DNA from: an uncultured Acidobacteriota bacterium
GTDB taxonomy: Bacteria > Acidobacteriota > Terriglobia > Acidiferrales > 2-02-FULL-67-57
NCBI GenBank assembly: GCA_964441645.1
Contig: CAYTXK010000001.1
Coordinates: 1 to 39,641 of the forward strand
Length of the DNA: 39,641 nt
Reading direction: 5' to 3'
Below, in pieces: positions 2,181 to 39,641 of the stretch. The notes under the pieces were generated by a model that saw nothing but the letters and a program-made list of their open reading frames with translations, made no database searches and was not told where the DNA came from. Position numbers and translations under genes: made by a program. Numbering within the stretch: position 1 is the first letter of the stretch; each line of letters opens with the position of its first letter.

Positions 2181-2984
2181 ATGTTTCCACGACTCTTCAC
2201 ACTCGACGGCTTCACCCTGCACTCCTACGGGCTGCTGGTGGCCACGGGTTTGCTGGTGGGGATTTACACCGCCAGCCGCTTCGCCGAGCGCGTGGGCGGA
2301 GGCGTGGACCGGGAAACAGTCTGGAATCTGGGCGTCTATATGTCGCTGGCGGGCTTGCTCGGCTCCAAGGTGTTCATGATTCTCTCGGAGTGGGGTTACT
2401 ACTGGCAGCATCCGGGGGAGATTTTTTCCTGGTCGGTCTTGAATGCCGGCGGCGTGTGGCACGGCGGTCTGCTGTTTGCCATTGCCACCGGGTACTGGTA
2501 CGTTCGCCACTACCACCTTCCCTTCTCCGGGCTTGACGACGCCTACGCGCCAGGCATCGCGGTCGGGTACGGCGTGGGGCGGCTGGGGTGCTTCATGGCC
2601 GGCTGCTGCTGGGGAAAACCGACCACCCTCTGGGGCGTTACTTTCACCGACCCCTACAGCGCGCGTATCGTGGGCACTCCGCTCGGCGTCCCGCTTCACC
2701 CCACGCAACTGTACGAAGCTCTGGCGGAATTTCTGATTTTCGCCTGGCTGCTCCTGCTGTGGCGGCGCCGGGCTTTTCCCGGCCAGGTTTTCGCCCACTA
2801 CTTGATGCTCTATGGGGTGACGCGCTTCTTCATCGAGTTCCTGCGCAATGACCCGCGCGGCCCTTTCCTGTTCGGGGGCACGCTCTCCCAGGCTCAAGTG
2901 ATCAGCGTGGCGCTGTTTGTGGTCGCGGGTCTCTATTGGCTCGTGCGGCGCCGCCAGCATCTCGCCGCTGCCCATGCCCGCTAG
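2181..2984 (+). CDS. lgt: prolipoprotein diacylglyceryl transferase
   Basis: The ATG directly abuts the lspA stop (TAGATG). It is a polytopic membrane protein with the Lgt signature GRLGCFMAGCCWGKPT and PTQLYEAL. Confidence 0.93.
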   Translation: MFPRLFTLDGFTLHSYGLLVATGLLVGIYTASRFAERVGGGVDRETVWNLGVYMSLAGLLGSKVFMILSEWGYYWQHPGEIFSWSVLNAGGVWHGGLLFAIATGYWYVRHYHLPFSGLDDAYAPGIAVGYGVGRLGCFMAGCCWGKPTTLWGVTFTDPYSARIVGTPLGVPLHPTQLYEALAEFLIFAWLLLLWRRRAFPGQVFAHYLMLYGVTRFFIEFLRNDPRGPFLFGGTLSQAQVISVALFVVAGLYWLVRRRQHLAAAHAR

Positions 2985-3930
2985 GGTGCTCGACCTGCGG
3001 GTTCCCGCCGAGGCCCGCCAGCAACGCCTGGATCAGTTTCTCTCGGCGCAACTGCCGGAGCTCAGCCGCTCGCGCATCCAGGAACTGATCCGCGAGGGCC
3101 GGGCGCGGCTGGATGGCGGCGTCGTGCGCCGGCCGGGGCTGCGCCTGCGGGGCCGCGAAACTCTTTGCCTGGAAGTAATCGAACACGCTCCCGTAGTGGC
3201 GGCGCCGGAAGCGATTCCTCTTACGATAGTTTATGAAGACGACGACCTGGCGGTGGTGAACAAGCCCGCGGGGATGGTGGTGCACGCCGGCGCCGGGCAC
3301 AGCCGCGGCACACTGGTCAATGCGCTGTTGCATCGCTTGGGCTCGCTCTCGAGCGTGGGCGGGCCGCTGCGCCCGGGCATTGTTCATCGTCTCCACAAAG
3401 GCACCTCCGGCCTGCTGGTGGTGGCGAAGACCGACGCGGTTCACCGCGAGTTGGCCTAGCAATTTCGCCGGCGCGCGGTGGAAAAGCGCTACCTGGCGCT
3501 GGTGCATGGCCGCTTGCCGCGCGGGCGCGATTCGATTGAGCTGCCTGTGGCGCGCGACCCGCGCCGGCCCACACGGATGACGACGCGCCGACCGCAGGGG
3601 CGCGCCGCGACGACCGAGTATCGCGTGCTGGAAACGACCGGCGGCTTCACTCTGCTGGAAGCCCTTCTGCGCACGGGCCGCACGCATCAAATCCGTGTGC
3701 ATCTTTCGGCGCTCGGACATCCGGTGGTGGGGGACACTCTCTATGGCGCGCCGCGGCAACTGCGCCTGGGCAGCGCGTCTCGTCCCACGATCAATCGCAA
3801 TTTTCTCCACGCGGCGCGTTTGCAATTCCGGCATCCGCGCACCGGGCAACCGGTGGAATTTCGTGCCGCCTTGCCCGACGAATTGCTCGACTTGCTGCGC
3901 GAGCTCGGCCTGAAAGCGCCGCCGGGTTGA
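2974..3930 (+). pseudogene. rluD: RluD/RluA-family 23S rRNA pseudouridine synthase, interrupted by one in-frame TAG (3457..3459) and lacking the catalytic Asp
   Basis: Listed ORFs 2917..3459 and 3478..3930 are in the same frame and are separated only by TAG 3457..3459 (..AVHRELA*QFRRRAVEKRYLALVHG..). The product has an S4 domain (QRLDQFLSAQLPELSRSRIQELI), motif II written GIVHRLHKGTSGLLVVAKT (family consensus HRLD) and motif III RTGRTHQIRVHL. The likely start, ATG 2974 (MPARVLDL), overlaps the lgt end by 11 nt. Confidence 0.8.
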
Positions 3931-6387: not shown

Positions 6388-9328
6388 CTGCGGCTTCCAC
6401 TGTGCTCTCCGGCTCTTCGGCAGGAGCGCCCAGCGACTGCTCGAAGGCCGGGCAGAGCAGCCGATAGTCACAATAGCGGCAGGGATAGCCCGGCTGGGGC
6501 GCGAAGGCGCCGGCGCGAATGCCCTCGGCAACCTCTCGCAGGCTTTCTCGAGCCCGCTCCAAGGTCTTTTCGGCCGGGGCAAAGCTATGCGCCTGATTGA
6601 GGGTGAAGTTGTACAAGGTCAGCCGCGCGGGCTCGAGCCCCAACTTGTAACGCGCGGCCAGCGCGTACAGGGCGAGTTGCACGCTTTTCTCTATCTTCTC
6701 AGGAGGCCGCGGTTGGCCGGTTTTGTACTCGACGATCTCGACCGCCCGCCCGCTGAGGCGGTTGATCTGGTCCATGCGGCCGGTGAGCACCATGTCCTCC
6801 CACTCCCAGCGAAAGGTTTTCTCCAGCTCGAGCACGGCCGATGGTTCGCTGCTCGCCTGTTGGCAGAATTCCTGAAGTTGTTGCAGGCCCGCCGTGCGGT
6901 AGAGCTCTCGCTGAAAGGTGTCGTGGAAGGGCCAGCCGGTTTCGCGCCACTGCTGTTCGTAAATGTGCTGAACCTCGTCAGCGGAAACTACGGGCAGGTG
7001 CTGGCGGGCTCGAAAGAACTCCACCACGCTGCGGTGCATGATCTGGCCGAACACCATGGCCGGGGTGCGCGCGCCGGGAAGCCCCCAGAGATGAGCAAAT
7101 TGGTACTTGAGCGGGCACTGCTGATACGTTTCCAACGCTGAATGGCTCAGGGTGAGCGGTTCCTTGATGAGGGAATCAACCGGCTGGCCGGCCCAGGCGG
7201 CGATGCGGGAGGAGAAAGTCGCCGCGGAAGGAAAGAGCGCCTGTTGCTCACTCTCTGGTGGAGGCGCGGAAGCGGGCGGGGGCGGGGCCGGACTCACCTG
7301 TTCGAGGTCGCGCGCCGAGTGCGGGTCGCGCAGGACGTCCTCCAGAAAAACCGAGAGTTGTTTGCGCGGAGCGTTGAGGGTGCTGAGAGCCAGCCGCTCG
7401 CGCGCCCGCGTCAAGGCCACGTAGCAGAGGCGGCGCTCCTCCTGAATGCGGAAGTCGCCCACCGGCAGCGCCTCTTTCATCAGCTCGGGAGGGAACTCGA
7501 ACAGAAGCGGGCGAGGCCGCGCCGGGAAGTCGCCTTGATTGAGGCGTAGGACAAAAACCGAATCAAACTCCAACCCCTTGGCGGCATGAACGGTCATCAA
7601 TTGAACCACATCGGGGTTGAGGGACCCTTCCGGGAGGTCGATCTGACCGCCGGCTTCCTGGAAGTAATCGAAGTACTGGATGAATTCGGACAGCTTTTGG
7701 GTGTCGCTCTTGTCGGTTTCCCAGGTGCGCAGGAAGCGGATGAAGGTGTCGAAGTAGGGGCGTTCGGGGTCGGAGGGCAATAACTGAATCCCGAGGCGCT
7801 CGAGAAGCGAGTCCAGAAGCTCGCTGAGGGGGAGCTCGGCCGCCGCGGCGCGAAAGTCGGCAAGGAGGCGGAGAAGGTCCCCCAGTCGGGTGTGCTGGTC
7901 GCGCACGCGCGGGGGGAGGTCTGCGATAGCTTTGGCCAGTGAGGGCTGCTCGCGAGTCAGGCGGCCGAGGAGGTCGAAAAACAGCTCGCGGGTGAAACTC
8001 CAGGCGGGGATGGCCAGCAGGCGCGCGCAGCTCACATTGTCGCGAGGATTCTCGATAGCGCGCAGATAGGCCAGTAGGTCGCGCACCAGCGGGCTGGTGA
8101 GAATGGAGAGGCCGCGAATCACAAAGGGGATGCGGGCCCGCAGGAGTTCTTGCACCAGCACGTCGCGGTGCGCGTGGGCGCGGTAGAGAATAGCGATGCC
8201 GGCATAGGCGCCCGTCTGCTGGCGGAGACGCTCGATGGCCGAGCGCACGTAGGCGGCTTCCGCGGCCGCACCGGACAGTTCGGCTAAGCGCACCTTTTCT
8301 CCGCCGGGCGCGCGCGGCAGGAGCCGCTTGTTGGGGTCGAAGCGCGCCGGTCCGTTCTGAGCAATCAGCGTGGTGGCCACCGAAAGGATGCGGGCCGTGG
8401 AGCGGTAGTTCTGGGCGAGGGTGATCTTGCGGCAATCGGGAAAGAGGTCCTGAAATTTCTTGAAGCTCGCATAGGAGGCGCCACGAAAACGATAGATGGC
8501 CTGATCGTCGTCGCCGACCGCGGTGAGGTTGCGATGGCGGCCCGCCAATAGGGCCAGCAGCTCGATTTGCGCGATGTTGGCGTCCTGGAATTCGTCCACG
8601 AGAATGTAGCGGTATTGCTCCTGATACTGAGCAAGGACATCGGGGCGGGAGCGAAGCAGCTCGACGGCGGAAAACTGCGAGCTGCCGAAGGTGGTGCGCT
8701 GGGCTTCCGCGAGCAACTGCTCGGCGGCGGCGTAGGCGCGGGCCAGCTCCTGCTGCCGGGCCAGCTCCTCGGCGCGCTTGCGCTTCTCGTCGTCCCCGAG
8801 CCAAATCTTTTCCTCTTCGAAGCGCGCCGCCAGTTTGTCCACATGCCGCGCGTAATCCTCCGGACTCACCAGCTCGTCCTGGCAGCGGGAGAAAAACTCC
8901 CGGAAGTCATTGAGAAAGCGGCCAGGCTCGGAGAGGCGCAGGAAGAGGTTGAGGCCGAGCCGGTCCAGGCGCCGGCGCAGGAAAATCCAATAGTCGTAGT
9001 TGTCGAGGATTTTCAGCGCTTGCTGATGGCGCTGCAGTAGGTCGTAGCAGAAAGCGTGATAGGTGTAGACCCCGACGCGCTCGGCGCGTTTGTCCCCGGC
9101 GCGGCGGATGCGCGCCTGCATTTCCGCGGCGGCTTTCTCGGTAAAGGTGATGGCGAGAAGGTTTTCCCCCTCGAGCTCCGGGATGGTTTCGAGTAAGTAG
9201 GTGACGCGCTCGGTGATGACGCGGGTCTTGCCGGTGCCGGCGCCGGCAATCACCAGCAGCGGCCCGTGGAGATGCTCCACGGCGGCGCGCTGCTGGGGGT
9301 TGAGATCCAAAACCGCCGGAGTCCTCAT
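6380..9328 (-). CDS. UvrD/Rep/PcrA-type SF1 helicase fused to a C-terminal PD-(D/E)XK nuclease with Cas4/AddB-like Cys cluster
   Basis: Walker A GAGTGKT, motif II VDEFQDAN, QNYRST, VHAAKGLEFDSVFV and YVALTRARERL are all present. The C-terminal domain has GRMDQIN...EIVEYKTG (D..E.K) plus one N-terminal Cys (YQQCPLKY) and CRYCDYRLLC (C-x2-C-x5-C). Confidence 0.9.
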   Translation of the reverse strand: MRTPAVLDLNPQQRAAVEHLHGPLLVIAGAGTGKTRVITERVTYLLETIPELEGENLLAITFTEKAAAEMQARIRRAGDKRAERVGVYTYHAFCYDLLQRHQQALKILDNYDYWIFLRRRLDRLGLNLFLRLSEPGRFLNDFREFFSRCQDELVSPEDYARHVDKLAARFEEEKIWLGDDEKRKRAEELARQQELARAYAAAEQLLAEAQRTTFGSSQFSAVELLRSRPDVLAQYQEQYRYILVDEFQDANIAQIELLALLAGRHRNLTAVGDDDQAIYRFRGASYASFKKFQDLFPDCRKITLAQNYRSTARILSVATTLIAQNGPARFDPNKRLLPRAPGGEKVRLAELSGAAAEAAYVRSAIERLRQQTGAYAGIAILYRAHAHRDVLVQELLRARIPFVIRGLSILTSPLVRDLLAYLRAIENPRDNVSCARLLAIPAWSFTRELFFDLLGRLTREQPSLAKAIADLPPRVRDQHTRLGDLLRLLADFRAAAAELPLSELLDSLLERLGIQLLPSDPERPYFDTFIRFLRTWETDKSDTQKLSEFIQYFDYFQEAGGQIDLPEGSLNPDVVQLMTVHAAKGLEFDSVFVLRLNQGDFPARPRPLLFEFPPELMKEALPVGDFRIQEERRLCYVALTRARERLALSTLNAPRKQLSVFLEDVLRDPHSARDLEQVSPAPPPPASAPPPESEQQALFPSAATFSSRIAAWAGQPVDSLIKEPLTLSHSALETYQQCPLKYQFAHLWGLPGARTPAMVFGQIMHRSVVEFFRARQHLPVVSADEVQHIYEQQWRETGWPFHDTFQRELYRTAGLQQLQEFCQQASSEPSAVLELEKTFRWEWEDMVLTGRMDQINRLSGRAVEIVEYKTGQPRPPEKIEKSVQLALYALAARYKLGLEPARLTLYNFTLNQAHSFAPAEKTLERARESLREVAEGIRAGAFAPQPGYPCRYCDYRLLCPAFEQSLGAPAEEPESTVEAAEN

Positions 9329-10017
9329 TGGGTCAGGAGATCGACAACATCGAGGGCATCGGCGGGGTGTGCGTGGCCGTTCTCGAAATGGGCAAAATCA
9401 ATCAAGAATACCGCGGCGAGTAGTAGGGCCTTCTTTACTACATCGAATTCAACCGGGAAGTCGACACCAAAGTTATCTGTGTCGGTAAAGACTTCTTTGA
9501 ACGTTCCGCTCCATTTCTTAACGATCTGCCCCATAGTCCCATTTCCCTGCTGAACTTGAAACGTCCACGGATGCCAGAAGGGGCCGATGATTCGAAAGAT
9601 CTCTTTGTCGGAGGAGTCCCAGACTGAATAGACTCTGCGCACGATTGAAAATCGGGCTTGGATCGTACCAAAGAATTTGTGACTCGCATTAAAGACGTTG
9701 AACCGATAGAAAAAGAATCGAAACGGCTTTTCGATCACGAGCAGCGGTTGCTGGTCGGGCGTCAGAATATGCATCGTAAAGGGACGGGCGCTCCCCAAGA
9801 ACAGGCGGGCAAGAAACGACCCGGCCACCTCCGCCGCCAAGAACAGTTCCTGTCCCTGCTGGTCGAACACCACATACCTGTTTCTGGTCTCGAAGCCGAG
9901 CAGAATCTCTGCCCACTCCTTTTTCTGCGAAACAATCAGCGAGTGAGCACTGCTCAGCGGTTCAAGCGTTGCTTTTCGACCGGGAGTTGTGGGGACAACA
10001 TCCATGCAGGCTCCCAT
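9325..10017 (-). CDS. phospholipid scramblase (PLSCR/Tubby-C-like fold) family protein
   Basis: The repeated-beta-strand sequence (ILLGFETRNRYVVFDQQGQELFLAAE..., FRIIGPFWHPWTFQVQ, GQIVKKWSG) matches the family. The C-terminal KKALLLAAVFLIDFAHFE closely matches the eukaryotic PLSCR C-terminal motif (..AVMIGACFLIDFMFFE). Its stop overlaps the helicase ATG (ATGA at 9325..9328). The second ATG at 10005 has the better SD spacing (GGGAGcctgcATG). Confidence 0.78.
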   Translation of the reverse strand: MGACMDVVPTTPGRKATLEPLSSAHSLIVSQKKEWAEILLGFETRNRYVVFDQQGQELFLAAEVAGSFLARLFLGSARPFTMHILTPDQQPLLVIEKPFRFFFYRFNVFNASHKFFGTIQARFSIVRRVYSVWDSSDKEIFRIIGPFWHPWTFQVQQGNGTMGQIVKKWSGTFKEVFTDTDNFGVDFPVEFDVVKKALLLAAVFLIDFAHFENGHAHPADALDVVDLLTQ

Positions 10018-11392: not shown

Positions 11393-11812
11393 TTGAGTCA
11401 TTGGCTACTGCTGGGGCTGGCGCTGGCCGGGGCGGGCATTTCGCTTTACTTCACCCTGGTTTACTACGGCCGGCTCCAGTCGCCTGAACTTCCCCCGGCG
11501 CTCTGCCGGCGCGAGGAACGCACCTGCTTGACCATCCTCGAAACCCCCTATGCGCGTCTGCTGGGTGTGCCCAACGCCCTGGTCGGGATTGGCTTCTACG
11601 CTCTGACGGGACTGGTGGCCAGCCTGTCGCTGGCGGGAACGCTGCCCCGCTGGCTCTGGCTCGCCAATTTTCTCGCGGCGGCCGGCACGGTCATCGTGGC
11701 ACCGTATCTCGTCTGGGCCCTGGTGGCGCGGCTCAAGGTCTGGTGCCGATTGTGACTGTTCAGCCACGTCGTGAACGTGGCCGTATTGCTTTTGTTGTGG
11801 GAATCGCGCTAG
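11393..11812 (+). CDS. vitamin K epoxide reductase (VKOR)-family membrane thiol oxidoreductase; the conventional ORF ends at TGA 11753..11755 and the read-through/Sec form ends at TAG 11810..11812
   Basis: Loop Cys pair in PPALCRREERTC; conserved TPYARLLGVPNALVGIGFY segment; three hydrophobic helices. The ORF stops as ..KVWCRL-TGA. In-frame continuation gives LFSHVVNVAVLLLLWESR, the expected last helix. The family assignment is firm. The extension past the TGA is a hypothesis. The TTG start at 11393 is uncertain. Confidence 0.6.
11763..11781 (+). other. hairpin 7 nt downstream of the in-frame TGA (candidate bacterial SECIS-like element)
   Basis: GCCACGT (11763..11769), loop CGTGA, ACGTGGC (11775..11781). 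The apical loop starts 17 nt from the U of UGA and contains GU. A mutually exclusive alternative GTTCA/TGAAC pairing also exists. Confidence 0.3.
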
Positions 11813-20809: not shown

Positions 20810-21559
20810 TCACTCACCGTCCCGGCGGCGCTCCAGGGCCTCGTGAACCGGTTGGGCCACAGTTTCATGGACCCGCTGCTGGAAGGCTTCGACCTCGTCG
20901 CGTGCCATCCCCCGGGTTTCGAGAGTGTCGTGGAGGTAGACGGTTATCGTGGCGGGGTGGAGCATCCAGTCGCCGGTGCGGAACCACTCGAAGGCGCCGA
21001 CGATGCTCATCGGCACCACCGGGTACTGGAGATGAGGCAGCATGCGAAAGACACCTTCCGCAAACGGGCCCATGCGCCCGTCCCGCGTGCGCGACCCCTC
21101 CGGAAACACAATCACGCTGATGCCGGCATCAAGGGCTGTCCGCGTCCGCCGCAGCAATTCCTTGAAGGTTGCCAGGCTGGCGGTGTTCTCCGGCACCGGA
21201 ATGTTGCCGAACTTTCCCATCATCCAGCCGTAGGCGGGAATGGTGAAATGCGTCTCCAGCTCCCAGCCGCGCACGAACTGCGGAATCGCGGAATAAATAA
21301 CGAAGGCATCGAAAAGGTTCACGTGGTTGCAGATGAACATACTCGTACGCTCGGGGTCAAAGCCGGGCGCGCGCCGCACTTCCAGCCGCGCCCCCGCCAG
21401 ACGGAGGATGTTGCGGAAGAAGACGCGCTGCGGCCAGTCATTCTTGCGGGGATCAATCACCAGCCCCAGCAGCACTAAAAACGTGCAGACCGGGAAAAAA
21501 TGCAGCGCGCTGATGACCCACAAGAACAGACAGCGAACCACGAAGTAGGCTTTTCTCAT
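20810..21559 (-). CDS. lysophospholipid / 1-acyl-sn-glycerol-3-phosphate acyltransferase (PlsC/AGPAT family)
   Basis: N-terminal TM helix. H-x4-D motif (CNHVNLFD). FPEGSRTRDG motif. Confidence 0.88.
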   Translation of the reverse strand: MRKAYFVVRCLFLWVISALHFFPVCTFLVLLGLVIDPRKNDWPQRVFFRNILRLAGARLEVRRAPGFDPERTSMFICNHVNLFDAFVIYSAIPQFVRGWELETHFTIPAYGWMMGKFGNIPVPENTASLATFKELLRRTRTALDAGISVIVFPEGSRTRDGRMGPFAEGVFRMLPHLQYPVVPMSIVGAFEWFRTGDWMLHPATITVYLHDTLETRGMARDEVEAFQQRVHETVAQPVHEALERRRDGE

Positions 21560-21590
21560 GCTCCTGAGGGGCGCGGCCGGAGGGACTCGC

Positions 21591-23300
21591 TCACAAGCCC
21601 ACCACGGCGCTGCGGTCGAGGCGTTTCCGAATTTCCTCGGCCAGCTCGCGGCGCTTAATCTTGAGAGAAGCGGTCCGAGGGAAGTCTCGCTCCCAGAGCA
21701 CCGTGCCGCGGATGCGCTTGAAGTCCGGCAGGCGGCGATTGCGGAGGATCAAGTCGTTGCGCAGGGCGTCGCTGACCGACTGCCCGGGCTCCAGATGCCA
21801 CACCAACACGAGCTGCTCTCCGCCCAGCCCGTGCTGCGGCCACAAGTAGTTGGCCGCAAAGAGGCAAAACTCCTTGACGGGCAGGCCCTCGAAAACCGTC
21901 TCGATGTCCTCGGGATAGATATTCTTGCCGCCTTCAGTGACGATCATGTTCTGCTTCCGGCCGAAGAGTTGCAGGTGGCCGCTGGCGTCCAACCGCCCGA
22001 GGTCGCCGGTCATGAGCCAGCCGTCCACAATCGTTTCCGCGGTCAACTCCGGATCGTCGAGATAGTGCGACATCACCGTCTTGCTACGCACGGCGGCTTC
22101 GCCGATCCCTTCCGAATCCGGATTGACAATCTTAACTTCCATCCCCGGCAGTGGTTTGCCCACCGTATCGGGGCGAAAGGGATTGAAATCATTCAAGGTC
22201 ACCGCTGTCCCGGCTTCCGTCAGCCCGTAGCCGTTGGCCACAGGAATCCCCAGGTCGTAGAAGAATTGCAGCGTGGAGGCCTCGGTAAAGGCTCCGCCCA
22301 CGAACAACGCTCGCAACTCGCCGCCAAAAGCCCGGTGGATGTCGCCGAGCAGCCACCGGCTCAGCTTCAGGTGGGGCCGCTTGCGGGTCAGCAGCCGGTT
22401 CAACCCAACCAGGGCGTCAAGAATAAATCGCTTGTGAGACGGGAGCGCAGCGAATCTTTCCTTCAGGCCGCGTTCCAGGTTCTTGAGCACCAGAGGAACC
22501 AGGCTCATGTAAGTAATCTTGTAGCGCGGAAAAGCCTCGCGCACGTACTCGGGCCGCAGGGTGCGCAGATGGACTACCGCTGCGCCACAAACAAAAGGCC
22601 CGATGAAACCCACCATGAAGTCAATGGCGTGGTTGGTGGGCAGGATGCTCAGGTAGCGCACCCCGGGCCAGAAGGGATAGAGCGCCGTGAGGGCGATGCA
22701 CTGCTCGAGATAATTCTCGTGCGTCATCACGCAGCCCTTGGGCCGCCCCCCGGTGCCGGAGGAATAGACGATGGAGGCCCAGTCTCCCCGGCCACGCCGC
22801 ACGATGAGAGGGTTCCCTTTGCCTTTGGCTTCCTCCCAGCGAAACGCTCCCGCCAGATCAGCTCCCGGCGGTGCCTCGGTGACCCATACGGTCTCAAGGC
22901 TCGTGCCCTCGACGCCTCCGGCCGCCACCAGCGCGCGCCAGAGATAATGCTCGATGATGAGCACGCTCGCCTTCGAGTGCGCCAGCAGCGCCCGGTGCTC
23001 CTGCGGGGTCAGCTTGAAGTCGAGCGGCACCAGCACCCCGCCCCGGTAGAAAATCGCGCAGGCTGAAATCAGCCACTTGGACTGATTGCTCATCAGGGTG
23101 GCTGCGCGATGGTCGGGACCGAAGCCCCGCTCTTCTAACGCCCCGGCCAGCGGCAGGGCGGCCTCTTTGAACTGTCGGTAAGTGAGCCGGGTGTTCTCCC
23201 GCTCGCGGTCGGCTTCGATCAGGCAGACTTCGTCGGCCCAGCGCTCCAGCGCCTCCCGCAGCGCCTCCCCCAGCGACTCATATTTGCTCAAGTCCAGCAT
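21591..23300 (-). CDS. long-chain acyl-CoA/acyl-AMP ligase (ANL superfamily)
   Basis: AMP-binding motif [30 protein letters not shown] and C-terminal [10 protein letters not shown] are present. Confidence 0.9.
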
Positions 23301-23315
23301 TGAATAACGGAGTGA

Positions 23316-23321
23316 ATTATA
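23316..23321 (-). promoter_or_regulatory. -10-like TATAAT, 15 nt upstream of the ligase ATG (possible internal promoter, short leader)
   Basis: The minus strand reads ..cactcTATAATtcactccgttattcaATG. I see no good -35 element and no SD. Confidence 0.25.
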
Positions 23322-23386
23322 GAGTGCCTGTCATTCCGAGCGGAGCGAGGAACCTGCTTTTCCTCTGTGTCTCTGCGCCTCAGTGG

Positions 23387-23629
23387 CTAAAGGCGGGCTT
23401 GAATCCGCTCGGCGAGAGTGCGGAAGTCCGTCACCCCTTGCAGCTCGTAATCAGGCAGCTCGATGCCGAAATGACTCTCGATCCGCGTCAACAGCTCCAG
23501 GGCCTGCAAACTGTTGATCCCCAGCTTTTCGAAGAAGTCGTCGTCCGGCGAGAGACTCTCGCGGGGCACGGTGAAATGCTGGGCCGTCAAATCGAGGATT
23601 TCTCCCAAGGTCTGCGGCAAGGTTCGCAT
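23387..23629 (-). CDS. acyl carrier protein
   Basis: 80 aa. The phosphopantetheine attachment context is FFEKLGINSLQALELLTRIE, followed by a helix-rich acidic tail. Confidence 0.8.
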   Translation of the reverse strand: MRTLPQTLGEILDLTAQHFTVPRESLSPDDDFFEKLGINSLQALELLTRIESHFGIELPDYELQGVTDFRTLAERIQARL

Positions 23630-23649
23630 CTCAGTTCATCCTCATCGTG

Positions 23650-24453
23650 TCATGGTAAATAAGGCAAGGGGTCTTTGCTTTCCACGAACTTGCGCAGGCC
23701 GGCCTCGACGGCCGGCCGCGTGAACAGGTCGCAGAAAATCTCAATCTCGCGCCGCATCTCTTCGTAGGGGATGGGCTTGAGAAACTGTTTGGCGGTGGCG
23801 CTGGTCAGCGGGTCGAGCTTCCTGAGCTGCGCGGCCGCGGCGCGAGCCACGCGCAACGCTTCTCCCTCGGCGGCCACCTGGCTCACCAGGCCGACCGAAA
23901 GAGCCTTGCTGGCATTGAGGCTGCGCCCCGTCAGCAACAGGTCGCGCACCACCGCGTTCCCCAGGTCGCGCTTCAGCCGCGGAATGCCGCCAAAGCCGGG
24001 AATCAAACCCAGGCGAAGCTCGGGAAAGCAAAAGCGGGTCATCTTGTCGGCAATAATCAAATCGCAAGCTAGCGCCAGCTCAAATCCTCCCCCGAAGGTC
24101 ACGCCGTGAACGGCCGCAATCGTCGTCAGCGGAGAGGAATCGATGAAGTTCAGCACGCGGTGGATTCGCTGGAGAAAATCGCGCACGCCCGCCACCCGCG
24201 CCTCCGGGGAGGCTTCCTGCGAGCGGGTGTAGAGCTCCCGGAGGTCCGCCCCGGCGCAGAACCCCGCCGCCAGGGTGCTGTGGACGATCAACACCCGCGT
24301 CCTGGCCGGCACGGAGGCCAGTACGTCCACAAACTGCTCAAGCTCCGCCAGCGTGGCCGAGCCCAGTTCGTTGCAGGGAGGCCGGTGGAGCGCCAGCTCC
24401 AGCACGGCGTCCACCACACCCCAGGACAGCGTTTTGCCGGTGAATTGAGTCAT
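23650..24453 (-). CDS. enoyl-CoA hydratase/isomerase (crotonase) family protein
   Basis: GFCAGADLRELY, AAVHGVTFGGGFELALACDLIIA and PELRLGLIPGFGG are present. Confidence 0.9.
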   Translation of the reverse strand: MTQFTGKTLSWGVVDAVLELALHRPPCNELGSATLAELEQFVDVLASVPARTRVLIVHSTLAAGFCAGADLRELYTRSQEASPEARVAGVRDFLQRIHRVLNFIDSSPLTTIAAVHGVTFGGGFELALACDLIIADKMTRFCFPELRLGLIPGFGGIPRLKRDLGNAVVRDLLLTGRSLNASKALSVGLVSQVAAEGEALRVARAAAAQLRKLDPLTSATAKQFLKPIPYEEMRREIEIFCDLFTRPAVEAGLRKFVESKDPLPYLP

Positions 24454-24467
24454 TGAGCGGACGGCCT

Positions 24468-24497
24468 ATTCTAATGAGGAGTAGGAGGAGTAGGCAA
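24468..24497 (-). promoter_or_regulatory. possible internal promoter (TTGCCT-18 nt-TAGAAT) upstream of the crotonase gene
   Basis: On the minus strand TTGCCT is at 24497..24492 and TAGAAT at 24473..24468, 14 nt before ATG 24453. The spacer is made of the tandem 9-mer at 24477..24494. Confidence 0.3.
24477..24494. repeat. tandem 9-nt repeat AGGAGTAGG x2
   Basis: It reads directly as AGGAGTAGGAGGAGTAGG in the 76-nt gap between the ligase and crotonase genes. Confidence 0.7.
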
Positions 24498-24529
24498 CGT
24501 TCTCCCGCCACTCCACGGTCTAGCCATCT

Positions 24530-26191
24530 TCAGCGACGGTACAGCTCCTCCACCTCCGCCTGATAGCGCGCCACGATGGCATCCCGCTTCAGCTTGCCGT
24601 TGGCGGTCAGGAGCCCGTTTTCGATGCTGAAGGGTTCGGTAAGGACTCGGAAGGCGTGGACTTGTTTGTAGTGCGGCAGGCTTGTGTTCAAAGCGCCCAA
24701 CGCCGGCTCCACCTCCCCGTGGCTCACCGAGCCCGTGACCAGCGCCGCCAGGTGCCTCCGGCCGTTCCCCACCAGCATCACGTGTTGCGCTCCCGTGAGC
24801 AACTGTCCCAGCATCTCCTCCAGCGGCTCCGGAGCAATGTTGTGACCCGAACTGAGAATGAGAAGATTTTTCACGCGCCCGATGATGCGCCAGTTGCCCG
24901 CGGCGTCCCTCTCCCCCTGGTCGCCGGTGTGGAACCAGCCGTCGCGCAGAACCCTCGCCGTCTCCTCCGGCCGCTTCCAATAGCCGGGAAAAATGTGCGG
25001 GCCGCGAACCAGAATTTCGCCGCTCTCGCCGAGCTTCATTTCCGTTCCCGAAATCCCGTACCCCACCCAGCCGGGCTTGATTCGACCGGGAATGTCCATA
25101 GTGCAGATGGCAGTCGTCTCGGTCAAGCCATAGACCTGCAGGACCGGCAGGCCCAACATAAGAAAAAATAGTTGGGTCTCCTCGACCAAGGGCGCCGAGC
25201 CGCAGATGAGGGCTTTCAGGTTGGGGCCTAACTTTTTCCGAATAGCCGGAAAAATCGCGGCGCGAGCTAAGAAAAGCCAGAGGGAGTCGAGAAAGCGTAC
25301 TTCGCCGGACTGCTGCTTGAAAAAGGCATGTTTTGCCTTTGTGAAAAGCGCCTTCGCAAAACCTCCGCGCTTCTCAAGCTGGTCTTCGACGCTCTTTCGC
25401 ACTCTCTCCAGCAAGGCCGGGACATTGAGGAAGTACTGTGGCGCGGCTAGGGCCATTTCTTCAGGCAATTTGGTCAGATCCGTTGAGAGCGTGATGGTAC
25501 TGTGGCGGGACAGGCAGGAAAGCAAGAGAATCCATGAGCCGGCAAAGCAAAAGGGCAGGTAATGGAAGACCTGCTCCGGGGCGGACTGCGTTCCCATCAG
25601 TTGATCGAGCCGCTCGGAGGTGCAGCGCAGCATGTGGTTGAGGTTGCCAGCGGTCAGAACCACTCCCTTGGCCTCGCCTGACGTCCCAGAGGTATAAATA
25701 ATCGTCACCGGGTCAGAGTCGGCTAGCGCGCCGGGGGTTTCGCTCATCTCCTTCGCCGGCCGGGCGGAAGAGAACACCTCGTCGAAAAGAAGAAGAGGAG
25801 GCGCCTGGGGCCAGAGCGATTGAATACTCTTCCGCAGCGATTCATCGCCGCAGCACACCAGAGCCGGGGCGCTGTCTTTCAGCATGGCGACCAGCTCCGC
25901 CGGCGCCTGCCGGGCGTAGAGCGGCACCACCACTCCGCCTTCGGCCATAATCGCCAAATCCAGCGCGGCCCAGCCAATGCTGTTGTGGGCCAGCAAAGCG
26001 CCGCGGTTGCCTTTCTGAAAGCTCTTTTCCGCCAAGAAGGCGCGCGCGCGGCCAATCAAAGCCAGCAACTCTCCGCCGGTCGCGGAGACAATGCGACCCT
26101 CGCGCACCTCTTGGAGAACAGGCCGCGCCGCGGATTCACGCAGGCGGCTGAAGATGTGCTCAAGAAAGTTCACGGCAGCCGATCCTTCCAC
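24530..26191 (-). CDS. long-chain acyl-CoA/acyl-AMP ligase (ANL superfamily), second copy
   Basis: IIYTSGTSGEAKGVVLTAGN, VYGLTETT, HTGDQGE and C-terminal ANGKLKRDAI are present. Confidence 0.9.
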   Translation of the reverse strand: MEGSAAVNFLEHIFSRLRESAARPVLQEVREGRIVSATGGELLALIGRARAFLAEKSFQKGNRGALLAHNSIGWAALDLAIMAEGGVVVPLYARQAPAELVAMLKDSAPALVCCGDESLRKSIQSLWPQAPPLLLFDEVFSSARPAKEMSETPGALADSDPVTIIYTSGTSGEAKGVVLTAGNLNHMLRCTSERLDQLMGTQSAPEQVFHYLPFCFAGSWILLLSCLSRHSTITLSTDLTKLPEEMALAAPQYFLNVPALLERVRKSVEDQLEKRGGFAKALFTKAKHAFFKQQSGEVRFLDSLWLFLARAAIFPAIRKKLGPNLKALICGSAPLVEETQLFFLMLGLPVLQVYGLTETTAICTMDIPGRIKPGWVGYGISGTEMKLGESGEILVRGPHIFPGYWKRPEETARVLRDGWFHTGDQGERDAAGNWRIIGRVKNLLILSSGHNIAPEPLEEMLGQLLTGAQHVMLVGNGRRHLAALVTGSVSHGEVEPALGALNTSLPHYKQVHAFRVLTEPFSIENGLLTANGKLKRDAIVARYQAEVEELYRR

Positions 26192-26206
26192 CGTCGCGAC
26201 AGCGAC

Positions 26207-27613
26207 TCAGTCGTAGGTCTCAACCAATCGGCGCAGGGTCGGGCTGAGCGGCGGCAAGTAGTCCTCCCAGCCCGCCACCCCGCGCCGGACGGGAAACTCC
26301 GGGTATTGCCGCTGCACTTGTTGCTCGAAGTAAACCCCCATCCGCGCCATAGCCTTGAGATTTTTGACGACGGTGCGGCCCATGGCCTCGCGGATATCGT
26401 CGCGCTCGCGCTCGAGCCTGTCCAACGCCGCCAGCAACTTCGCTTCCAGCTCCGGGTCACTCACATCCAGCAGAAGATGCGCCTGGCCGAGCTCGTGCAT
26501 CAAGTTCCGGATGCGCTCGTCCATGCTGACCCCGACTGCCGGCACCAGCGCCGGCATGGATGTGACGATGCCGTGGTAACGCGAAGAAACCATCAACGCC
26601 CCGCAGCGCAACAGGCTGACCAACTGGTACATGTCGTAGTCTTCCGAAGTAAACACCGGCGCCCGCAGCCGCTCCCCGAGCCAGGCGCACGCTCGTTTGT
26701 CGAGCCGTTCCGTTCCCACCACAATCGGAAAAACCGACCGGTCGCGCCGGAACCGCTCCGCGGCGTTCCCCCAGGCTGCCAGGTACCGCTCGAACGCCGC
26801 CTTCTGCTTCGCCCCCCAGGTGTGAAAATAAATCGTCCGGTACTGGCTCTCCTTGTAGGCGCCGGTGAGCGTGCGTGCCGCCAGCTTCAGCAGCGACGGC
26901 CGCACCGGCCAGAAAAACGGATTGATGGGGCAAAGCACCAGCACAGGCTTCTTTTCATCCCAGCCTGCTTCCCGCAGAACCCGCCGGCCGTAGTCGGGCC
27001 CCTGCGGCTCGAAGGTCCAAGCGGTGTCCGTGCCCCATTCTGTGGGCACGCCCAGTTCGCGCAGGACACCGCGAGACTCCTCGTTGCGGGTAATCACCAG
27101 AGAGTTTCCGCAGTACCGCCGCACCATTTTGCGCAGCGCGCCGTCCATTTCGCCTGCCTCCGCGCCGTAGCCCACCGAAAGCTTGTTCTGGGCGGCGGCG
27201 ATGCCGAGCGAGCCGATCATCATGGTCGTCAAGGCGTTGGCGAATTTGCTTTTGAACATCGAGCCTTCGCAGGCCACCACCCCGTGGTGCTTCGGCACCT
27301 CGCGGTAGAGAAACGGCGGGAAAACGTCGGGCAGCCTGACCTGCGTGGCCCCGGCAAAGTAACCCCGCGTCCGCTCGAAGTTTTGCGTCATCACCGTCAA
27401 CTCGACGTTCTCGCGCCCTAGCAGGCACGCCACCTGCCGCAGCATCTCTTCCACCCGCACGTCCGAGCCGGTGTTGCGCGTGCCGTTGTAGCCCGCGAAC
27501 AGGAGCTTGAGCTTGGTTCCCGGGGTCCACGGCTGCCCGAACCCCAGAATCCAGGTGAGCTTGGAGGTCTCAATCAGCAAGCTGACCCAGGCCTCCAGCA
27601 CCAGGTCCATCAT
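26207..27613 (-). CDS. polysaccharide pyruvyl transferase-like (PS_pyruv_trans / GT-B-like) protein
   Basis: ATG 27613 overlaps the upstream TGA (ATGA). It has an N-terminal [20 protein letters not shown] (family pattern G-x-x-G-x-x-N-x-GD) and a C-terminal [26 protein letters not shown] (family pattern S-x-R-x-H-x-x-I..G-x-P..). The assignment is by eye only. Confidence 0.6.
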
Positions 27614-28746
27614 CCGGCGGCTTCTCCGGCGGCGCTCGGCCATTCGCGGTAGTGGTAGGTGAAATGGTTCTGCTGGCTGAACCGCAGCAAGGGGTAGGCG
27701 TATTCGGAAAAGGGCTTGGGAGCGCGGCCGAGTTCCGTCACCACGCGCGTATTATCAAAAACCGTGTTCCACACCAGGTAGGGAAAAAAGACCCGCAACA
27801 GGGAAGCGCCATAGCCGACGGGCGTCCCGCGCCAATGGGAAAGCCCGTTTACGAGCCAGCGAAACGGCGCCTCCAGGCCGGACCAGAACACGGGTCCGGG
27901 TTTCCCCCGCGCCGCCGCCAGCGCCCCGGTCAACTCCCGGTAGGTCTGGGAGCTTCGCCCCGAGGCGAGGTGGTAGGTGTCGTAGGCGGGCTTTTCTTTC
28001 TGGGGCAGGGCGACCACGGATTCGGCCACAAAATCCACGGGAACAATATCGACCCGGTCGATGGCCCGGAAAGGCAGCACCGGCAAGCCGGCCAGAAACA
28101 CGAAAGCCCGCACCATATCGAACTGGGTGGTTTGGGGGCGGCGACTGTCCCCGAGCACGATGCTGGGCCGGAAGATGGTACGCGGCACGTCGGGCAGCAA
28201 CTCGCGAATCATGTGCTCGCAGAACTTTTTGGTTCGGGCATAGGGGTCGTAATCGGAGCGCTCCCAGTCAATCGCCTTGTCCTCTTCGACCACCTCATTC
28301 TGGCGGTGGCCGGCCACGGCCACGGTGCTCACATGGCTGAAGCGGCGCAGCCCGTGGTGGTCGCGCGCGCCCGCCGCCAGCTTGATCACCTCCAGCGTGC
28401 CGCGCAGGTTGACGTTGAGGCAGCTTTTTTCCGACTTGCGGTTCAGCGAGGCCGCGCAATGAATCACCGACTCGGTCGACTCCGCCAGGCGCCGGTAGGC
28501 GTCCCCCGCGCACCCGAACCCCAGTTCGGTGATGTCGCCGCGGACGATGGTTATCCGCGAGCGCAGGTGCTCATAAAAGCGGGGGAAGTCCAGATGCAGC
28601 TGCAAGGAGCGCCAGAGCCGCTGTTCGGCCTCGCGGTTGTCCCGGGCGCGCACCAGCAGATTGAGCCGCGTCGTGTGCCGCTCCAGCAACTCGGCCACGA
28701 TGTGCGCGCCGATATAGCCTGTGGAGCCGGTTACGAAGATGGCCAT
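27610..28746 (-). CDS. thioester-reductase-type SDR (NAD_binding_4 / 'male sterility' family) acyl reductase
   Basis: Rossmann motif [14 protein letters not shown], then [21 protein letters not shown] and catalytic Y-x3-K (YARTKKF). It overlaps the upstream gene by 16 nt. Confidence 0.85.
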
Positions 28747-31127
28747 GTGGCTTCAGGAACTAGGGGTGAGCGGGCGCGCCCCGCCTCTCCGGACGAGGCC
28801 GGGCCGGGAGACGCGGCGGGCCACTGGAAGCTGCGGGGAGGTCGGCTCTCGAGCGGGCGCCCTTCCATCAGCGGATAGCACCAGCGCCGCAGCGCCGGAA
28901 CATGAACGTTGATCCAATACTCCCACCAGTCAATCGCGCCGGGGTCGTAGCCAAAGGCTTCCCGCTCTTCCGTCGGAAGGGCGGCGGCCAGGAGCTCGAC
29001 GTTGTCCGCCTCGAAGACGTGCTCGTTGTAAAGGATAAAGGGCTCGTAGAGCTCGATGAGCTTTTCAATGCGCTCCAGGTCGCGTTCCCGGCGGGCGAAG
29101 GGCGGGCGCCGCAGCAAAGGCCCCGTCAGGCGGTTGATGCGGTGCACAAAGGCCTTTTGCGCCGGGGCCGAGAGCGTGTCGTAGCGCTGCTTCGACACCG
29201 GAATGGTATCGAAGCGAGACCGCAGCCAGTGCTCCAGCCCTTGCTGGGCGCGATAATGCTTGCGGTGGGCCAGGCTGGTCAGCTCGATGGAGCGCCGCAT
29301 ATCGCAGGGGTTGATGTCGGAGGTAGCCAGCTGATAAAGCCGCTGCTGCCGGCGCTCCACCAAGGCCGCGGCAATCAGCATCATCCCCCGGCACACCAAA
29401 TCCACTGGGATCAAGTCCAGACATTTTCTCACGTTAGTCGGCAGTTGCCGGAAATACGTCCCCAGCAAATACGAAAGCGGCGCCGAGGTGTTGATGCCTT
29501 CGTTCCAGCCCGGAAGCGGCGGCCCCACCGAGGTCTCGACAATCGAGGGCCGCACAATGGCCACCGGCAAGTCCGCGCCGCGCTTCTCGATCAAGGATTC
29601 GGCCAGACTCTTGGTAAGAGTATAAGTGTTGGGCCAGCCGAGCTCCTGGGCGCGGCGCGTCCCCAGATCGGTCAAGCGCGTCCGCAGCCAGCGGCGACGG
29701 TAGCGCCGCACGTGCTCCTCGAGCGCGGCGCCGGCGAGCTTGCGGCTGGCGGTCTTTTCCAGCGCCAGCCGCTCAAGCTCCTGGCTGACTTCGGGGCTTT
29801 CGGCTTCGGCTTGCAGCTCCTTCACGCGCGCGTGCAGCGAATGCCACTCCTGCTCGGCGTCGAAATCGCGCAGCTCGGCGGGCGTGTAGTTGGGCTCGAC
29901 CTCCTCGCTCACTCTCCCGTCGCGGCTCCCCACCACGTAGCACGTCGAGAGGTGCAGCAGGGCGGCGTGGTCGCACTCGCGCAGAAAATCCAGCAGGTGG
30001 ACGACGGCGTCCACATTGGCGGCCAGGCCCAGGCGCAGCTCGGGGTTGAATTCCGTCAGGCCGGAGCTGTTCACAATCAAATCGAGGCTCCCGGCCAACC
30101 GGGCACGCGTCTCGGGCGCCAAGCCCAGGTCGGGCTGGCTCACGTCCCCCTCGACCACTTCAATCCGCTCAGCGAGAAACCGGCCCAGGTCGTCGCCGTA
30201 CCGCTCGTGGAAGGGGTCGAAGATGGGCGATTCCTCGACGATTTTCTCGAAGCGCCGCAGCGCCGTCGTCGAGCGCTGGCGGCGAATCAGCAGGTGGAGC
30301 CGCCCGATGGCGGGCAAGTCCGCCAGCGCCTTGGCCAGCCACACTTTTCCAATAAAACCGGTGACGCCGATGAGCAGAACGTGCTTCCCTGCCAGCGACT
30401 CGCGCACCGATAACCGCTCGACTCTTTTCTTGGCCTCGAACACCACCAGGACTCGCTTGCGGGGCGCCAGGCGACGCTCGGCGGGCTCGACCGCGGCCCG
30501 CACAATCTCCGCTCGGCCCGCAAAACCCAGATTCCGCGCCAGCTCCTCGAGCGCAATGCGCCCGTCGGGGCCGACCCGCAGCAGCCACGCCAGGCCGCCG
30601 CGGGGTCGAATGACCGGATCGAGAAGCCTGCCGGTGGCGCGCCCGTCGTGGAATTCCAGGCGGTTCGCCACCAGGCGCTTGACGCCGAGAAAATTCGCCA
30701 GCGGGCGCATCACATGGTCGAGTCCCTGGCTGACCAGGACTACGGAGTCATTTTCGGCCAGGACTTCGCGGAGTTTTTCGACCCCGGCCGGCTTGAGCTT
30801 GGGCTTCATAACGTACTGAAAATATTCTTCACCCAGAAGGTCGAGGCGGTCTCGGCTCACCCCGCGCAGCAAACCGTGCAGCACGCGCGTGGCAAATACG
30901 CGGTGGGCGGCGTAGAGAAAGGGGCGCACCACGGTCAGCGCCGCCAGGCCGCCGCGGCGCCCCCAGCGCTCGGCGAAGCTCTGGGCGTTCCAGGTGAAGA
31001 ACGCTACCGGACGCACGGCGCTCAGGTTCAGCAGGCTTCCTTCCACCCGCCAGAAGATTTCGCGGGTGGGCGGAACCTCTCGACCCGGAGCGGACTGATC
31101 GTGGTTAGAGAGACTCACGGCTCGCAC
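28731..31127 (-). CDS. fusion protein: degenerate HAD-IB-like N-domain + fatty acyl-CoA/ACP reductase (FAR; NAD_binding_4 + sterile-type C-domain)
   Basis: The N-terminal ~215 aa is HAD-IB-like ([43 protein letters not shown]), but motif I reads FWRVEGSLL. From aa ~248 the Rossmann motif [13 protein letters not shown] appears, followed by [20 protein letters not shown] and Y-x3-K (YTLTKSL). There is a long C-terminal domain. GTG start. Confidence 0.8.
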
Positions 31128-37293: not shown

Positions 37294-37309
37294 GCAGGAG
37301 GAGAGAGTC

Positions 37310-39641
<2,332 letters not shown>

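Follow-up and report, generated by a model that had tools for sequence, protein, structure and literature searches.

Synechococcus vitamin K epoxide reductase (VKOR; 3KP9/4NV2/4NV5/4NV6) and human VKORC1 (6WV3 and related entries) belong to the same Pfam family (PF07884) and share a pair of loop Cys residues and, where the fourth transmembrane helix (TM4) begins, a motif at the CXXC position. In the human enzyme, the second Cys of the CXXC motif, Cys135, passes electrons directly to the substrate: it attacks vitamin K epoxide to form a covalent adduct, which is resolved by Cys132 (PMC7895805). DsbB, a functional analogue from a different Pfam family, is a membrane four-helix, quinone-linked disulfide generator, and its Cys44, which contacts the quinone, has been equated with Cys135 of VKORC1 (PMC4555120). 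A phylogeny of 327 VKOR homologues called the CXXC motif invariant and left selenocysteine (Sec) unmentioned (PMC4555120). Here we describe a gene in a 39,641-nt stretch of DNA from an uncultured Acidobacteriota bacterium (GenBank assembly GCA_964441645.1, contig CAYTXK010000001.1, positions 1 to 39,641 of the forward strand; hereafter the window) that has the family domain, the loop Cys pair and the motif at the start of TM4 in common with Synechococcus VKOR and VKORC1, but in which the second residue of the CXXC pair is encoded by UGA, proposed to be read as Sec, and not by a Cys codon. Unlike Synechococcus VKOR, the proposed protein has only 139 residues and carries no fused thioredoxin-like domain.

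Selenoproteins with CxxU, UxxC or UxxU motifs are the other group of described systems with which this locus can be compared. The SelW-like, AhpD-like and Prx-like proteins, GrdA and the membrane "putative mercuric transport protein" with C/SxxU all use Sec for a redox Cys, and, like the gene considered here, they have a stem-loop in the coding region after the UGA and Cys-containing homologues elsewhere (PMC13188914). A Sec-containing VKOR would differ from them in having Sec inside a membrane helix bundle, at the quinone-reactive site, whereas most catalogued selenoprotein families have a thioredoxin-like fold. The features of the locus, including a candidate Sec insertion sequence (SECIS), are as follows.

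11393..11812, + strand: complete coding sequence proposed for a Sec-containing VKOR homologue, with 139 codons, of which the UGA is Sec121, and the stop TAG
11504..11527, + strand: loop Cys pair LCRREERTC (C38 = 11504-06, C45 = 11525-27), corresponding to the pair that shuttles electrons in VKORs
11744..11755, + strand: active-site motif C118-R-L-U121 (TGC CGA TTG TGA; C118 codon = 11744-46)
11756..11809, + strand: 18-codon C-terminal extension LFSHVVNVAVLLLLWESR, reached by in-frame read-through, body of TM helix 4
11763..11781, + strand: candidate bacterial SECIS hairpin GCCACGU-CGUGA-ACGUGGC, 19 nt, 7-bp stem, loop CGUGA
11810..11812, + strand: true stop TAG in the proposed reading, at position +19, the same position in 27/27 unique orthologues

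The open reading frame (ORF) at 11393..11755 (+) begins with TTG and has 120 codons; it contains the TPYARLLGVPNALVG segment and its C-terminal end is ..KVW-C-R-L-TGA. The TGA at 11753-11755 occupies the position of the second Cys of the CXXC motif, and a read-through product spanning codon 121 would contain VWCRLU-LFSHVVNVAVLLLLW. The initial annotation, which was made from the sequence alone, had pointed out the ORF, the Cys pair, the TGA in the CXXC motif, the in-frame read-through and the hairpin, and each of these was found again at the same positions. The membership in the VKOR family is clear from the Pfam match to PF07884 (E = 3.9e-26, 92 bits with a cutoff of 27.5), for which the read-through form covers positions 1-133 of the 134 positions of the profile and the truncated form only 1-116. 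In a sequence search of the PDB, C38 and C45 were aligned to the loop residues C50 and C56 of Synechococcus VKOR, and C118-R-L-[TGA] was aligned to the active-site C130-x-x-C133 of the same protein (3KP9). Among the sequences of alignment A1, C45 is invariant and C38 nearly invariant, and the loop pair precedes a conserved S/T-x-x-A-R segment (TPYAR). The first Cys of the CXXC motif at the start of TM4 is C118; the second position is the TGA, which is equivalent to Cys only if it is decoded as Sec.

To see what a stop at this position would mean for the protein, we used as a structural proxy the AlphaFold2 model of a Cys-type relative, P0078 (about 46% identical; predicted local distance difference test 87, predicted template-modelling score 0.81). 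The model has the VKOR four-helix fold, and the 13 PDB entries that match it best are all of VKOR (TM-score 0.68-0.77). The predicted helices comprise residues 2-23, 61-78, 83-111 and 116-136, of which the last, TM4, starts at the CxxC motif. Because TM4 begins at CxxC in this model, a stop at the second Cys would remove the whole of TM4 together with the substrate-reactive residue and would abolish the function. As judged from the model, no VKOR active site is left in a 120-residue product that lacks both TM4 and the reactive residue.

The 54 nt after the TGA have the properties of coding sequence. The frame stays open for exactly 18 codons past the TGA in all 27 unique genes of the TGA type, and is closed by TAG in 26 of them and by TAA in one. 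The extension aligns to TM4 of Cys-type VKORs with the pattern C-x-x-C-xxx-H-xx-N-x5-LL, which includes an HxxN motif. The ratio of non-synonymous to synonymous substitution (dN/dS) is 0.45 for the gene body; in the extension it is 0.43 when the hairpin is left out and 0.17 over codons +9..+15, and the conserved residues A+9, L+11, L+13 and L+14 are each written with two to four synonymous codons. Nucleotide conservation 3' of the hairpin follows a period-3 pattern. The initial annotation had asked whether the sequence after the TGA evolves as coding sequence; the dN/dS values, the synonymous variation and the homology to TM4 answer in the affirmative and indicate that this segment is coding and under purifying selection.

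We examined how widely the TGA is shared. A protein search returned about 76 related clusters with 54-92% identity and lengths of 107-145 aa, the longest by N-terminal extension, and those that were read have the common end W-C-x-L. More distant homologues of 131-173 aa continue with CPLC or CVLC followed by xxxHxxNxxxxxLL. The DNA of 141 loci was compared at the codon in question, which is TGA in 33 loci, TGC in 75 and TGT in 30; with the addition of L067, also TGA, the TGA loci number 34 and represent 27 unique genes. All 34 orthologous loci from Acidiferrales/Terriglobia, found in metagenome-assembled genomes (MAGs) and metagenomes, have TGA, and the 105 homologues from sister lineages have TGC or TGT. 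The records of the TGA loci are labelled as Candidatus Acidiferrales, Terriglobia or Acidobacteriota MAGs, with groundwater and rock fractures among the sources named, and the gene order around the TGA gene is thiolase-VKOR-DUF2007-recA-transpeptidase. The 27 unique genes are 56-92% identical at the amino-acid level. In a neighbour-joining tree with 200 bootstrap replicates, the TGA genes form a single split that was recovered in 200/200 replicates; pairwise identity goes down to 56% inside this clade and does not exceed 49% to any Cys form. Since the split is fully supported and the identity within the clade is as low as 56%, these comparisons point to one old change from Cys to TGA that has been retained since.

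Inspection of the orthologues had been suggested in the initial annotation, according to which genes truly ending at this point would speak against read-through. The codon is TGA in every orthologue of the clade, TGC and TGT being absent from it, and the orthologues do not end there but run on for 18 codons. That annotation had also considered an inactivating nonsense mutation or a sequencing error. For an in-frame stop one would first expect a recent nonsense mutation, a pseudogene or an error of sequencing in this genome, and the window holds one such case: the gene of an RluD-like pseudouridine synthase at 2974-3930 (+) has an in-frame TAG at 3457-3459 (..AVHRELA-TAG-QFRRRAVEKRYLALVHG..). 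This TAG corresponds to GAG or GAA (Glu) in all six orthologous loci examined and stems either from one G-to-T nonsense change or from an error in sequencing. The TGA of the VKOR gene is unlike such a fresh nonsense codon, because the RluD-like TAG is a sense codon in the orthologues and the TGA is conserved. The same TGA in 34 independent loci from different samples and assemblies, the common 18-codon extension in the 27 unique genes, and the age of the clade as seen in its divergence and bootstrap support leave this explanation scarcely credible, and both the nonsense mutation and the sequencing error were discarded.

Two irregular copies were encountered among these loci. In L004:9104-10351 (CDHKTA010000092), an inverted duplication at the contig end places a C-terminal thiolase fragment and the VKOR gene on both strands; it probably arose as an artefact of assembly there, and both VKOR copies carry the TGA. 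The TGA-clade VKOR protein P0072, from a 15-kb JGI contig, has lost about 39 internal codons in frame, and with them the CxxU, and it was consequently called through to ..VNVAVLLLLWKGV, so that the gene caller reads the extension frame as protein. The P0072 gene is probably a degraded copy.

Reassignment of TGA in the genetic code was considered as well, and it was rejected because 13 of the 26 other genes predicted in the window end normally at TGA. Counting all 27 predicted genes, 14 use TGA, more than use any other stop, and TGA also terminates some Cys-type VKOR genes. Although it is the commonest stop there, TGA never serves as the stop after the extension in the 27 orthologues.

The hairpin at 11763-11781 begins 7 nt past the UGA, and its loop begins 17 nt from the U of UGA. 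It is the minimum-free-energy (MFE) structure of the region, with -10.1 kcal/mol for the hairpin and -11.1 kcal/mol for 40 nt. That the hairpin goes beyond chance follows from the comparative analysis and not from this window alone. It is 100% invariant in the 27 unique orthologues, including synonymous third positions and the loop. Codons +4..+8 (CAC GTC GTG AAC GTG) show zero synonymous change in 27/27 genes, and each of the 21 other conserved degenerate codon columns has more than one codon (Fisher p ~1.5e-5 for the comparison with +4..+8). The invariant block coincides exactly with the hairpin edges, 11763-11781; just outside the stem, the first base of codon +3 (A/G, Ser/Gly) and the third base of codon +9 vary freely. 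Within the window clade, synonymous change is wholly suppressed over the hairpin, which is constrained as RNA. The unpaired loop bases at third codon positions, C11770 and G11773, are also invariant, and for this reason the loop sequence itself seems to be recognised, as the sequence comparison suggests.

Published criteria for bacterial SECIS (bSECIS) elements are a loop of 3-9 nt, a stem of 4-16 bp, a spacing of 16-37 nt and an MFE of at most -7.5 kcal/mol, with a G as the first or second loop base and, in most cases, G or U next to it on the 3' side (PMC13188914). The window hairpin is within the limits for loop (5 nt), stem (7 bp) and energy (-10.1 kcal/mol), and its loop C-G-U-G-A has a G within the first two positions, with G-U at positions 2-3, in 27/27 genes. 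With the spacing counted from the U of UGA, the bSECIS model fits 27/27 TGA genes against 1/89 Cys genes. Like the SECIS of fdhF and the bSECISearch consensus, the hairpin lies just 3' of the UGA and has a small loop with a G as its first or second base and then a U. It differs from the fdhF SECIS in its loop CGUGA, in having no bulged U and in matching no Rfam model, and its binding to SelB is putative. In fdhF numbering the corresponding bases are G23-U24, and the window loop lies about 4 nt nearer to the UGA.

A TGA at the CXXC motif is not confined to the window clade. We searched the cluster representatives exhaustively for proteins ending at or just before CxxC and inspected their DNA, which revealed six other deep VKOR lineages with TGA at this motif, three of them CxxU and three UxxU.

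L144:1531-1600, CxxU, GC 71%: CPL-TGA-IAGHALHAAVAALL..
L145/146 (L145:5373-5440), CxxU, GC 69%: CPL-TGA-MLAHALNAVVTVLL..
L147/148 (L147:5349-5420), CxxU, GC 57%: CPL-TGA-MMGHSLNAAVAAV..
L149:521-610, UxxU, GC 62%: TGA-AL-TGA-LGGHALNAVVTAVLL..
L150/151 (L150:1891-1990), UxxU, GC 43-44%: TGA-LL-TGA-LVAQAINAAVAAL..
L152:1277-1360, UxxU, GC 58%: TGA-RL-TGA-LAANGINVAVAALL..

Identity among these lineages, and between them and the window protein, is only 28-53%, and their in-frame extensions are homologous to TM4. Each of the six carries a GGUC-loop hairpin at a distance of exactly 29 nt from the U of its last UGA. The stem of this hairpin is 97% paired among the six sequences, two pairs are compensatory (C-G to U-A and G-C to A-U), and the covariation score of these six sequences was reached by 1/500 shuffles. 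The fdhF SECIS of E. coli has the same apical loop, GGUC. The hairpin of the window clade is different from the GGUC type and nearer to the UGA, so that the family has two hairpin types, with the loop CGUGA at 17 nt or the loop GGUC at 29 nt from the UGA. Taken as a whole, VKOR is probably an uncatalogued, recurrent bacterial selenoprotein family, in which at least seven deep lineages would have Sec at the CXXC motif (four CxxU, the Acidiferrales clade of the window being one of them, and three UxxU, the latter a putative diselenide) with two SECIS architectures.

Sec decoding was also looked for in the relatives of the host. By tblastn with E. coli SelA, SelB and SelD queries, only selD was matched, and only in Cys-type Terriglobia loci. 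In the selD genes of Terriglobia MAGs, an in-frame TGA occupies the active site (..VKAAG-TGA-AAKLSP..) and a hairpin, GAGUCCAAG-UAU-CUUGGACUC, comes after it; the genes were located as follows.

L026:5007-6060, - strand: selD with active-site TGA
L112:2786-3840, - strand: selD with active-site TGA
L142:9920-10960: selD with active-site TGA
L143:5760-6801: selD with active-site TGA

In L026 and L112, selD is 4-5 kb from the Cys-type VKOR gene; the gene adjoining selD in L142 encodes a glycosyl hydrolase, not SelB. Most of the best 120 SelD relatives are N-terminally cut to 318-330 aa, as expected of genes for Sec-containing SelD, and among these 120 none was tied to a MAG of the TGA clade. Three selenoprotein genes of the acidobacterium Occallatibacter riparius are part of a published test set (PMC12013277). 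These gene sequences indicate that Sec decoding exists in Terriglobia, and the support they lend to the window gene is at the level of the class. When the window was scanned against syntenic loci for further conserved in-frame TGAs, the only clean multi-locus match was the VKOR site, with 17 subjects, in an output swamped by off-frame shadows of real genes.

The UGA, the 18-codon continuation and the 19-nt hairpin 7 nt downstream have been kept together across a monophyletic Acidiferrales/Terriglobia clade, and the relatives outside the clade, with Cys at the site, are without the hairpin. We therefore consider it very probable, from comparative sequence data, that UGA-121 is decoded as Sec to give a full-length, four-helix, stand-alone membrane thiol oxidoreductase of the VKOR family with 139 residues and the motif C118-x-x-U121. 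The CXXU selenoprotein proposed in the initial annotation is supported in this way by a UGA that is aligned with Cys and conserved in a diverged clade, by coding sequence downstream of it, and by a hairpin present only in the TGA forms.

Several observations weigh against Sec decoding. The stability of the hairpin as a single sequence is unexceptional (z = -1.2 to -1.8; 13-26 of 200 shuffles fold as well), and there is no base-pair covariation within the window clade, because the stem never varies. With 14 nt between UGA and loop, or 17 nt when the U is included in the count, the spacing either lies at the lower limit of the 16-37 nt range or falls just short of it, according to the counting convention. 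No Rfam family was found at the site in scans by gathering threshold and E-value. No selA, selB, selD or tRNA-Sec was found in the 39.6-kb window or in any TGA-clade locus: Pfam scans of 20 window genes gave no sel genes, and ARAGORN gave no tRNA-Sec in the window, in all TGA-clade loci or in all 152 sequences (1.59 Mb). Finally, a lax terminator scan flags 11763-11781 plus its tail.

The last of these observations would suit a different explanation, in which the TGA is a genuine stop, the product a 120-residue, three-helix VKOR remnant, and the hairpin a terminator or regulatory element ahead of DUF2007-recA. The lax criterion is passed by 21/27 orthologues, and gene callers and NCBI do annotate the 120-aa product. 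The other 6/27 orthologues fail even this criterion, and the T residues after the stem recur with period 3, at the second codon positions of V/I/L in the orthologues. As an intrinsic terminator the element was rejected: the T runs are of at most 4 and begin at least 6 nt past the stem, in place of the immediate U tract that the criterion demands. A genuine stop also leaves the 54 nt after the TGA unaccounted for, which keep their frame, their length, the position of TAG/TAA, the homology to TM4 and a dN/dS of 0.17-0.43, and it would yield a product with no VKOR active site. We regard this explanation as very unlikely.

The lack of Sec machinery in the window and TGA-clade loci and the spacing at the short edge of the SECIS model would be compatible with UGA being read through without Sec, by near-cognate tRNA-Trp or tRNA-Cys or by a suppressor tRNA, with the hairpin as a generic read-through stimulator. 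The product would again be of full length, with Trp, Cys or another residue at position 121, in agreement with the coding signature by which the extension is clearly translated. This possibility would nonetheless be odd on enzymatic grounds, for the codon replaces the catalytic Cys of CXXC, a classic site of Sec/Cys exchange, where Trp or another residue would kill the enzyme and where Cys could be encoded directly, as it is in the 105 relatives. It likewise gives no account of the invariant loop bases, including a G-U as in SelB-binding loops, of the other VKOR lineages that pair the same TGA with a GGUC-loop hairpin, or of the Sec decoding present in class Terriglobia. Overall, we judge it unlikely.

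If UGA-121 is decoded as Sec, the following mechanism can be envisaged. The hairpin, as a bacterial SECIS, would recruit SelB·GTP·Sec-tRNASec to the ribosome paused at the UGA, and translation would then run through TM4 to the TAG at 11810. U121, at the position of the second CXXC Cys (human Cys135), would be the nucleophile on a quinone or epoxide, and C118 would resolve the adduct; with Sec at the quinone-attacking position and the first Cys as the resolving residue, a selenenylsulfide C118-S-Se-U121 would be formed in place of a disulfide. C38 and C45 would shuttle electrons from a periplasmic Trx/DsbA-like partner to the membrane quinone.

Sec recoding and VKOR are each well known, and their combination appears to be unreported. 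A catalogue from 2026, with 119 families and subfamilies of prokaryotic selenoproteins (PMC13188914), does not include VKOR/PF07884, and neither the BSepDB nor the deep-Sep paper speaks of VKOR in its main text. A full-text literature search for VKOR with selenocysteine or selenoprotein gave no report of a Sec-containing VKOR and only reviews on ferroptosis. NCBIfam (June 2026) has no model of a VKOR selenoprotein, and the matches to its generic VKOR models were all sub-threshold. In public records, the truncated 109-120-aa product is named "vitamin K epoxide reductase family protein". If our reading is true, VKOR joins the list of prokaryotic selenoprotein families, and dozens of public entries that have been cut to about 120 residues, and that read as lacking an active site, need correction. 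Selenium would then occupy the position from which the covalent or charge-transfer intermediate with a membrane quinone is formed, the enzyme class targeted by warfarin would have natural selenol and diselenide versions, and the use of selenium in Acidobacteriota MAGs would be tied to oxidative protein folding or to the redox chemistry of quinones. The CxxU and UxxU forms would be ready-made probes of the substrate-attack step of Cys135, and they touch on the question of why certain lineages accept the expense of Sec in a disulfide generator coupled to quinone. Two SECIS solutions in one family would also be a small natural experiment in SECIS replacement.

Other parts of the window deserve brief mention. 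A gene of the scramblase family at 9325-10017 (-) (PF03803, E = 1e-49) lies between the genes of a UvrD-like helicase and a thiolase; its GC content at third codon positions is 0.63, compared with about 0.8 in its neighbours, and L001 and L005 have no gene there. It may be a recent insertion or acquisition. A co-oriented cluster of lipid type at 20810-31127 (-) encodes an acyltransferase, two AMP-binding enzymes, an acyl carrier protein, an enoyl-CoA hydratase, a pyruvyl-transferase-like protein and two fatty-acyl-reductase-like proteins (NAD_binding_4), one of which also has HAD and Sterile domains. Three large consecutive genes occupy 32762-39641 (+): the first encodes a 947-aa protein with a multihaem-cytochrome-like segment (Cytochrome_C554) and TPR repeats, and the second and third encode FG-GAP/ASPIC-UnbV repeat proteins, of which the last runs off the end of the window.

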